In this document: piece after piece, positions 1,871-2,092 of the stretch
Numbering within the stretch: the stretch's first letter is position 1
Layout: each line of letters starts with the position of its first letter
The notes under the pieces: generated by a model
Database searches by the model: none
Told to the model about the DNA's origin: nothing
What the model saw: the letters and a program-made list of their open reading frames with translations, nothing else
Assembly (NCBI GenBank): GCA_965233585.1
Contig: CBDDTI010000531.1
Span: 1 to 13,385 of the forward strand
DNA length: 13,385 bases
Source: a bacterium
GTDB taxonomy: Bacteria; SAR324; NAC60-12
Direction: 5' to 3'
Program-made: the position numbers and the translations under genes

Positions 1871-2092
1871 ATGGCGGATGCTGGTACCCATAGAATCAAA
1901 TTTATGTCGATTTTGCGGCAAGACAGCGTCTTCAAAACACGTCTGCAAGACCTAAAGAAAAAGTCGAGCTTGAATTCGAACGATATAGTGTCAATGTTGC
2001 AGACGACAACGATCTTATTCATCCCCCCAATGTTCGCTGACGTGTGTGGGGCCGGTATAATCTTTATCGCCTGAGACGGTCAATCGGCAGGG
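1871..2092 (+). pseudogene. Frameshifted relic encoding a RAG1-N-terminal/Chapa (ZAD-like) zinc-binding motif
   Basis: ATG 1871 MADAGTHR; +1 shift to LCRFCG (1902-1919); +1 shift to FERYSVNVADDNDLIHPPNV (to 2034), then CGC (one change from Cys TGC); +1 shift to DVC (2039-2047). The reconstruction matches H..LCRxCG...D-x4-HP-x3-C-x2-C. Confidence 0.6.

Follow-up and report, generated by a model that had tools for sequence, protein, structure and literature searches.

A decayed RAG1-NZD/Chapa-type zinc-domain exon in a transposon nested within a Kolobok-type miniature element

In the parts of the literature cited here, the NZD/Chapa zinc domain is confined to RAG1, RAG1L and Chapaev (PMC4411706; bioRxiv 10.64898/2026.01.24.700457), and the relevant passage of the former paper places the Chapa domain in no transposable element besides Chapaev and RAG-like Transib (PMC4411706). 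A ligand pattern, H-x7-CRxCG...IHP-x3-C-x2-C...W-x2-H...C-x-C...GRP.KK, has been shown for RAG1, RAG1L and Chapaev (PMC4411706, Additional file 5). In the section cited, Chapaev elements are marked by target site duplications (TSDs) of 3-4 bp and CAC..GTG termini (PMC4079192), and the cited part of another study gives CA..TG termini and TSDs of 2-5 bp for the CACTA-Mirage-Chapaev-Transib (CMCT) clade (PMC12730594). The signature of Kolobok, according to the passage cited, is a TTAA TSD with 5'-RR..YY-3' termini (PMC9587614). Here we describe a remnant of a zinc domain of the NZD/Chapa type at positions 1871-2082 of a contig of 13,385 nucleotides (the window, which is the entire contig C531 of a 12-Mb assembly of 747 contigs filed as a prokaryote genome). 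The remnant very probably represents the decayed first 72 codons of a transposase gene from a family with 5'-CAGTCCGGG...CTG-3' termini and 5-bp TSDs, the window copy of which, element E2, is nested in a miniature inverted-repeat transposable element (MITE) of Kolobok type, M1.

The three forward frames of 1869-2095 contain the peptide strings that an initial annotation of this DNA had quoted for a zinc-domain frame running from 1871 to 2092 and split over three frames by +1 shifts. A single-frame read-through of 1894-2094, with TGA given as X (P0001), was searched against 5.8 billion proteins and matched two of them (E 1e-8 and 2e-8, identity 61% and 59%). In both, the sequence is uninterrupted: MADAGTHRIK..N[LI]CRFCGK[ST]ASSK[KR]TSARPKEK.KLEFER...DND[LF]IHPPNVCLTCVGY, continued in P0002 by FYRLRRS. 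A frameshift-aware comparison was done by three-frame dynamic programming against the protein of L015, an intact metagenome locus described below. It resolved the remnant into five segments:

1871..1900, plus strand: segment 1, MADAGTHRIK, whose His corresponds in the alignment to the N-terminal ZFb ligand of the RAG1 NZD
1902..1934, plus strand: segment 2, LCRFCGKTASS, which forms the first knuckle (CxxC) of zinc module ZFa
1936..2034, plus strand: segment 3, N.TSARPKEKVELEFERYSVNVADDNDLIHPPNV (N.TSARPKEK...DDNDLIHPPNV), the helix region and the IHP motif ahead of the second knuckle
2037..2048, plus strand: segment 4, LTCV, the remainder of the second knuckle (C)xxC
2050..2082, plus strand: segment 5, GRYNLYRLRRS, the helix that comes behind the second knuckle; similarity to intact relatives stops here, at the internal deletion junction of the non-autonomous subfamily

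The segments are separated by four frameshifts (near 1901, 1935, 2035 and 2049), and 56 of the 67 aligned residues are identical to L015. Judged from the protein matches and this alignment, the hidden frame is real and far beyond chance. The proposed splitting of the frame stands; the shifts are not all +1, the segment frames running 2,0,1,0,1 (start position mod 3). The alignment ends at residue 72 of L015, which corresponds to window position 2082 and not to 2092 as initially drawn.

Both knuckles can be followed in the window. The first is preceded by the His at 1889-1891 and lies at 1902-1922 (LCRFCGK), which gives CRxCG with a His some 7-8 residues upstream; residues C15, R16 and C18 hardly vary in alignments A4 and A5. 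The second knuckle is IHPPNVC(L/P)TC in the family. The window retains IHPPNV and, in a shifted frame, ..LTC, the codon of the first Cys having been destroyed by a 1-nt deletion and a substitution. The second knuckle is not the DVC of the initial annotation; it reads (C)LTC, in frame with 1869. At least two of the frameshifts, those after 1900 and after 2036, are private lesions of the window, because other copies have the missing letters: one contig of a coral-labelled run (X1) carries extra letters after 1900 (ATAGCAAATTTATGT, reading IANLC as in P0003), and one contig each of runs X1 and X7 has an additional C after 2036.

Downstream of 2082, where the homology ends, tblastn found nothing in the window, and neither ZFb nor the basic patch is present there. 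Two candidates for a continuation were dropped. The string RRGRPR near 2560-2600 was considered as exon 2 and is supported by no alignment. The GTAAGT at 2093 probably does not serve as a splice donor, since intact relatives continue through this point in one open reading frame (ORF). With the three frames, with P0047, P0034, P0062, P0037 and P0010 and with the L015 protein as queries, tblastn against the 12-Mb assembly revealed neither a second copy of the exon nor a copy of the transposase.

The domain consists of two modules, ZFa with C-x2-C...IHP-x3-C-x2-C, and ZFb with the N-terminal His and W-x2-H...C-x-C, which in intact relatives reads ITWEPHKDSECICTKDGRGRPSKKRK. Two profiles were used to identify it: A5, restricted to the family (nine locus ORFs together with P0010, P0021 and P0040), and A4, a wider set of 32 sequences including RAG1L-like ones. 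Against the Protein Data Bank (PDB), A5 matched the mouse RAG1 NZD (21wb_A) with E 9.3e-10, full-length RAG1 with 5.8e-6 and a zinc-finger-associated domain (ZAD) with 0.3; A4 matched 21wb_A with E 4.8e-18. The Pfam model RAG1_imp_bd was found in 11 of the 12 A5 members and zf-AD in 7 of the 12, both at E <= 0.01, the tested domain region corresponding to positions ~137-230 of PF12560. The N-terminus of L015 alone scored 31 bits with RAG1_imp_bd (cut-off 23.3). By eye, the match P0079 (phmmer E 7.8e-4) agrees with the sea-urchin row, SPRAG1L, of the published CHAPA alignment (PMC4411706, Additional file 5). The RAG1 ligand pattern, H-x7-CRxCG ... (D)xxIHP-x3-C-x2-C ... W-x2-H ... C-x-C, recurs in the family together with the basic patch, as does the pattern shown there for RAG1, RAG1L and Chapaev. 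Like the invertebrate RAG1L and Chapa domains, as these are described in the cited part of a recent preprint, the domain of the family passes from the first knuckle to the helix with no long insert (bioRxiv 10.64898/2026.01.24.700457). On this evidence the reconstructed peptide is identified as the start of a RAG1-NZD/Chapa-type zinc domain, and the identity proposed in the initial annotation is borne out. The window itself has only the His and ZFa, in broken form.

An AlphaFold2 (AF2) model of residues 1-118 of L015, computed with A4, reached a pLDDT of 80.2, the means per block of ten residues being 85-96 for roughly the first 70 residues and 56-68 in the second module. In a Foldseek search with this model the best matches were solved ZADs, 7po9 (E 0.041, probability 0.98) followed by Pita, Grauzone and CG2712; 21WB was not returned from the fold library, which extends to 2026-04-08 and may not include it. 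The ZAD-like predicted fold fits the likeness between ZFa and ZAD reported by Hong et al. in the part of their preprint cited here (bioRxiv 10.64898/2026.01.24.700457). The ZAD of arthropod zinc-finger proteins (zf-AD, PF07776) is thus the nearest predicted fold for the first zinc module of the family, yet it is a weaker match in the profile search than the NZD, and the family differs in having a further zinc module as well as a basic patch, and no C2H2 fingers behind the domain.

Two nested systems of terminal inverted repeats (TIRs) surround the remnant:

1382..4571, plus strand: E2, a non-autonomous deletion derivative of an NZD-bearing transposon, with its own TIRs, TSD and empty site
1382-1412 and 4541-4571: the TIRs of E2, 31 bp (CAGTCCGGGATCGTTATCAGATTTGATAACC), starting CAGTCCGGG
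1377-1381 and 4572-4576: the TSD of E2, TTTAA, 5 bp
1604..2333, plus strand: the part of E2 that holds the exon, 730 bp, absent from the copy on contig C123
2686..4125, minus strand: a 5'-truncated fragment of a non-LTR (long terminal repeat) retrotransposon with a (TAA)n tail (RVT_1, E 2.6e-22), inserted in E2 and absent from the C123 copy
18..5225, no strand: M1, a foldback-like MITE with long TIRs and termini GGTAATTCCC..GGGAATTACC, with TTAA TSDs at 14-17 and 5226-5229
352..1219, no strand: a MITE of another family, ~865 bp long with TIRs of 47 bp, which interrupts the left arm of M1; further copies lie at C456:8264-9126, C233:15248-16058 and C522:4766-5575 of the same assembly (G000)

E2 ends in CAGTCCGGG...CCCGGACTG (CAG..CTG). 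TTTAA is read as its 5-bp target duplication because solo copies of M1 show the uninterrupted target CTCGTTTAAGAGAAAAGG across the insertion site. A second E2 copy, on contig C123, lies outside any M1 copy and is flanked by the TSD GTGAA. It lacks the 730 bp that hold the exon, and since the junction shows neither a TSD nor a TIR, this absence is read as a deletion. Relatives from metagenomes tie the ends of E2 to the gene. In the short copy L016 the E2 5' TIR and 5' region (89.6% over 270 nt) are joined to the start of an intact NZD-bearing ORF and to the E2 3' region up to the 3' TIR (83.6% over 457 nt); thus the ends of E2 belong with the intact gene. L019 covers window 1382-2082 without interruption at 85.6%. 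Position 2082 is spanned by contigs of three runs, from which it follows that the deletion derivative is a multi-copy non-autonomous subfamily. The window copy itself is dead, internally deleted and non-autonomous, and keeps only the N-terminal His and ZFa of the domain.

M1 has inverted repeats at 14-358 and 4885-5229, its arms measuring ~535 bp in the window version, and its left arm is broken twice, by the second MITE (~352-1219) and by E2. Eight further M1 ends were found on eight other contigs, all beginning GGTAATTCCC, seven of them flanked by TTAA and one by TTCA; including the window, 9 of 10 ends in the assembly have TTAA and one has TTCA, and the termini are GG..CC. Seven copies could be followed to their inner end (C44, C558, C725, C367, C180, C359 and C170). 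They are solo elements of 655 bp that end in ...GGAATTACC TTAA and hold no coding sequence. M1 is present in very high copy number (contigs C44, C558, C725, C367, C180, C359, C584, C170 and C427), and in coral-labelled runs the summed contig depth of its arms exceeds that of the interior by a factor of tens to hundreds.

The intact family was reached through the reconstructed peptide and its matches. With P0003 as query, phmmer found 77 matches at E <= 0.001 among 1.84 billion representatives. In several of them the peptide runs on with ...YRLRRSPSSQALGKIPITWEPHKDSECICTKDGRGRPSKKRK, after which come an acidic linker and a conserved stretch that ends in LTAIDNDQVLLKKWTVRKENRAQISILTSVC. The search for longer homologous proteins with P0003 gave none, and the only longer protein in a search with P0047 was a Nematostella protein of 666 aa (amino acids) with 41% identity. 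When metagenome contigs were scanned with alignment A2, 37 loci were returned; a pattern scan of genome contigs matched 67 stretches, none of them a relative. Three of the loci (L015, L017 and L020) have one uninterrupted ORF each, of 1055, 1058 and 1052 aa, that begins with the full RAG1-NZD/Chapa domain. In the intact protein the N-terminal NZD/Chapa domain is succeeded by a basic patch (GRPSKKRK), then by an acidic linker and last by a catalytic part of ~900 aa, putatively of DDE type. The CAGTCCGGG terminus is exact in 14 of the 37 loci, always upstream of the ORF match, and the flanks are unrelated. At loci L021-L032, L037, L039, L042, L045 and L046, which cover many subfamilies, the tblastn match is interrupted after residue 368 and taken up again ~1 kb downstream in an intron-like manner, whereas L015, L017 and L020 are continuous past this residue, which suggests gain or loss of an intron inside one transposon family.

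Two further observations were made on the family. About 35 nt inside the 5' terminus lies a palindromic TGACGTCA box, followed by ..AAAATGG or ..AACATGG (L016, L019, L023-L034, L039, L041, L042 and L044). It is kept across subfamilies with proteins only ~40% identical and could be a promoter element, similar to the cAMP response element (CRE-like), or a binding site of the transposase. Some proteins (P0027, P0064, P0074 and P0065) lack a transposase part and carry NZD-like domains in tandem, two or three per protein; in P0027, three copies are accompanied by repeats rich in Ser and Pro and by a C-terminus rich in Cys. Such proteins may represent the domain in domesticated form or as an array.

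A possible course of events is that E2 arose by internal deletion of an autonomous element of the L015/L019 type, whereby both ends and the first 72 codons were retained. It would then have spread as a non-autonomous subfamily with transposase supplied in trans by a full-length relative. The window copy would have inserted into the M1 MITE and later have suffered the insertion of the long interspersed nuclear element (LINE) and four frameshifts, and the fragment it carries would be without function. In intact copies the NZD presumably binds two zinc ions and works together with the adjacent basic patch, a nuclear-import or DNA-contact element, in aiding the transposase, as has been proposed for RAG1 and Chapaev; by analogy, the domain most likely acts there as it does in those proteins.

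The initial annotation had assigned the exon to a TTAA/GG-ended Kolobok-like element, with the consequence that a Chapa domain would have moved into Kolobok. The exon does lie between the two arms of M1, and with its TTAA TSD and RR..YY (GG..CC) termini M1 fits the Kolobok signature, so that the outer element was rightly recognized; it resembles non-autonomous Kolobok elements and has no gene of its own here. E2, with its TTTAA and GTGAA TSDs and CA..TG termini, does not have this signature, and it is within E2, a nested and unrelated element, that the exon sits. An unrelated nested fragment had been named beforehand as the outcome that would speak against the assignment, and E2, flanked by TTTAA with the site intact in solo M1, is such a case. 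E2 also occurs without the outer element (C123, L016, L019), and the seven other M1 copies followed inward are 655-bp MITEs without coding sequence. We therefore regard ownership of the exon by the Kolobok-like element as highly improbable; domain shuffling into Kolobok is not supported, and the apparent link between Kolobok and Chapa is an effect of nesting, because E2 is inserted in M1. Equally improbable is an origin of the fragment from a host gene of ZAD-like or domesticated NZD type instead of a transposase gene, as an exon that was captured or has decayed. NZD-like domains do occur in proteins with no transposase part (three copies in P0027, two in P0064 and P0074), and there is a ZAD-like domain elsewhere in the assembly (C233), yet the closest relatives of the fragment (74-90% identity, DNA or protein) continue in one ORF into a protein of 1055 aa with the same termini, and the 5' untranslated region and promoter region are also common to the relatives.

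For the parent family of E2 we lean towards a Chapaev-like member of the CMCT clade, because the Chapa domain, CA..TG termini and a TSD within 2-5 bp are combined with a conserved D/C(2)C/H(4)H/LH block. All five members compared have kept this block, D(TMDGxPY)-17-C(2)C-...-H(4)H-...-GKLH.EMNMA. By eye the order of a Chapa domain at the N-terminus and then a GRP-KK-K patch is the same in the family as in Chapaev elements of the Chapaev-1/2_BF and Chapaev-1/2_NV type (Kapitonov and Koonin 2015, Additional file 5); the gene of the family likewise resides in a TIR transposon with CA..TG ends, and animal (cnidarian) hosts are common to both, the nearest named relative being the Nematostella protein. 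It differs from Chapaev by the 5-bp TSD, the CAG..CTG termini and the absence of a RING finger after the domain. With the Transib/RAG-like elements (TransibSU, ProtoRAG) the family has the 5-bp TSD in common, CCAGG being cited for TransibSU in the passage concerned (PMC4411706), and TransibSU also has an N-terminal NZD/Chapa domain; the termini of the family are not CAC, there is a single ORF, and similarity to the RAG1/Transib core was not detectable in Pfam and PDB sequence searches. Compared with RAG1, the NZD is joined to a different protein, L015 having no RAG1-core Pfam match, no RING finger and no RAG2-like neighbour.

Several results weigh against a decayed transposase exon of Chapaev-like origin. 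The single-frame pieces of the window gave no Pfam match to RAG1_imp_bd or zf-AD, therefore the domain call depends on the relatives, and scans of the whole assembly with the same two models did not pick the window. (These scans returned RAG1_imp_bd matches on C39, C243 and C518 that look like chance and a zf-AD match on C233 that is a distinct ZAD-like domain.) The ZFb half and all downstream parts of the gene are missing from the window. Only two insertions of E2 were seen to define its TSD (TTTAA with an empty site, and GTGAA), both of 5 bp, and 5 bp with CAG..CTG termini stand against the 3-4 bp and CAC..GTG of Chapaev. The motif order here is C(2)C, H(4)H, LH, against C(2)C, LH, H(4)H in the Chapaev3 element Garfield_BM (PMC4079192 supplement), a comparison made by eye on one protein and without statistics. 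In the three full ORFs and six core segments, neither RAG1-core (PF12940) nor CACTA was matched in Pfam at E <= 1, and no Pfam model matched the family ORFs for a Chapaev core. PDB sequence searches with the core returned no RAG1 or Transib chain and no real match; the rows obtained (scorpion toxins on the zinc ribbon, CENP-E) are due to chance, though a remote relationship may have escaped the Pfam and PDB searches. Nor was a RAG1-core match found in the assembly. DUF6589 (PF20231) appeared below threshold in five of six members at E <= 1 (best E 0.0061; 11.5-14 bits against a cut-off of 27). The AF2 model of the catalytic part, from an alignment of six sequences, had a pLDDT of 37.1 and was too poor for a fold search. 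On these results the catalytic part could not be assigned to a superfamily.

Some of these results would be explained if the parent family were neither Chapaev nor Transib but a separate lineage with a DUF6589-like core, which gained the NZD/Chapa domain independently, by shuffling between superfamilies though not into Kolobok. The sub-threshold DUF6589 matches fall at the same profile positions (~128-203) in five of six members, and in the ESM-Atlas the core has DUF6589 clusters as neighbours (score 0.95, 21 of 30 matches; 0.91 for P0047); the missing RAG1-core, CACTA and PDB matches and the TSD and termini unlike those of Chapaev point the same way. On the other hand, no member reaches the DUF6589 cut-off, and hhalign of the core against three exons of the DUF6589 gene on C607 (53 bits) gave probabilities < 1%, which is not significant; short stretches of the core and C607 that look alike by eye are not evidence. 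Moreover DUF6589 may itself be a core of the CMCT type, CA..TG termini with a 5-bp TSD fit that clade, and the C(2)C...H(4)H...LH block follows the conserved D. We consider a separate lineage rather unlikely. The C607 gene (G000 C607:6105-8903), the only clear DUF6589 gene of the assembly, is a multi-exon gene with a true match to the model (53 and 30.7 bits) and the motifs FDNID, GDQLTVER and GDWH. It is similarly doubtful, on present traits, that the E2/L015 family forms a third, undescribed lineage of NZD/Chapa transposons beside RAG-like Transib and canonical Chapaev; these traits are a 5-bp TSD like that of Transib/RAG, CAGTCCGGG ends in place of CAC, no RING finger and a core that leans to DUF6589 and is too distant from RAG1, Transib and CACTA to be recognized by sequence. 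Such a lineage would represent either a link between Chapaev and Transib/RAG or an NZD shuffled onto an unrelated transposase, as the initial annotation had imagined for another host element. The assignment of the remnant to a transposase gene of the E2/L015 family, with a Chapaev-like parent as the preferred origin, is the reading we retain.

As to the source of the DNA, contig C531 has a G+C content of 33-47%, a reverse-transcriptase fragment and nested MITEs, and it is animal DNA. The bin to which it was assigned is given as 92.5% complete with 2.1% contamination, despite the animal repeats on this contig; it appears that host animal DNA was binned together with that of a symbiont. Related copies are found in public runs labelled coral or coral-reef metagenome, or bearing coded organism names. 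None of the public sequencing runs contained half or more of the sampled words of window 1300-2700. No RNA run is listed among those with related sequence; runs guessed to be RNA were compared only as contigs, which say nothing on expression. On contig C233 (G000 C233:21992-22201) the ZAD-like domain CRTC...CRIC lies above the Pfam cut-off for zf-AD (33.7 bits); it has one in-frame TAG and is unrelated to E2. Near the contig end, at 12932-13201 of the window, an open frame resembles an exon of a methyltransferase dependent on S-adenosylmethionine (SAM; ..LDIGCAVGRSTFELAKRF..VVGIDFS..) and is probably part of a host gene. Other repeats of the window are:

7356-8299: a direct-repeat family of 53-75 nt
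10638-11132: a 53-nt inverted pair, 389 nt apart
8936-9048: a near-perfect hairpin of 55 nt

The fragment itself is an ordinary dead piece of a known kind of element, and it cautions against assigning hidden exons by default to the outermost pair of TIRs. Of interest is the family behind it, which has intact ORFs of 1055 aa in coral-associated data, a well-conserved NZD, 5-bp TSDs, non-CAC termini and an unplaced core. If this core should prove to lie outside Chapaev, or to be intermediate to Transib, it would bear on how the N-terminus and the core of RAG1 were joined, and it would provide for study an intact NZD-transposase together with a natural non-autonomous substrate.

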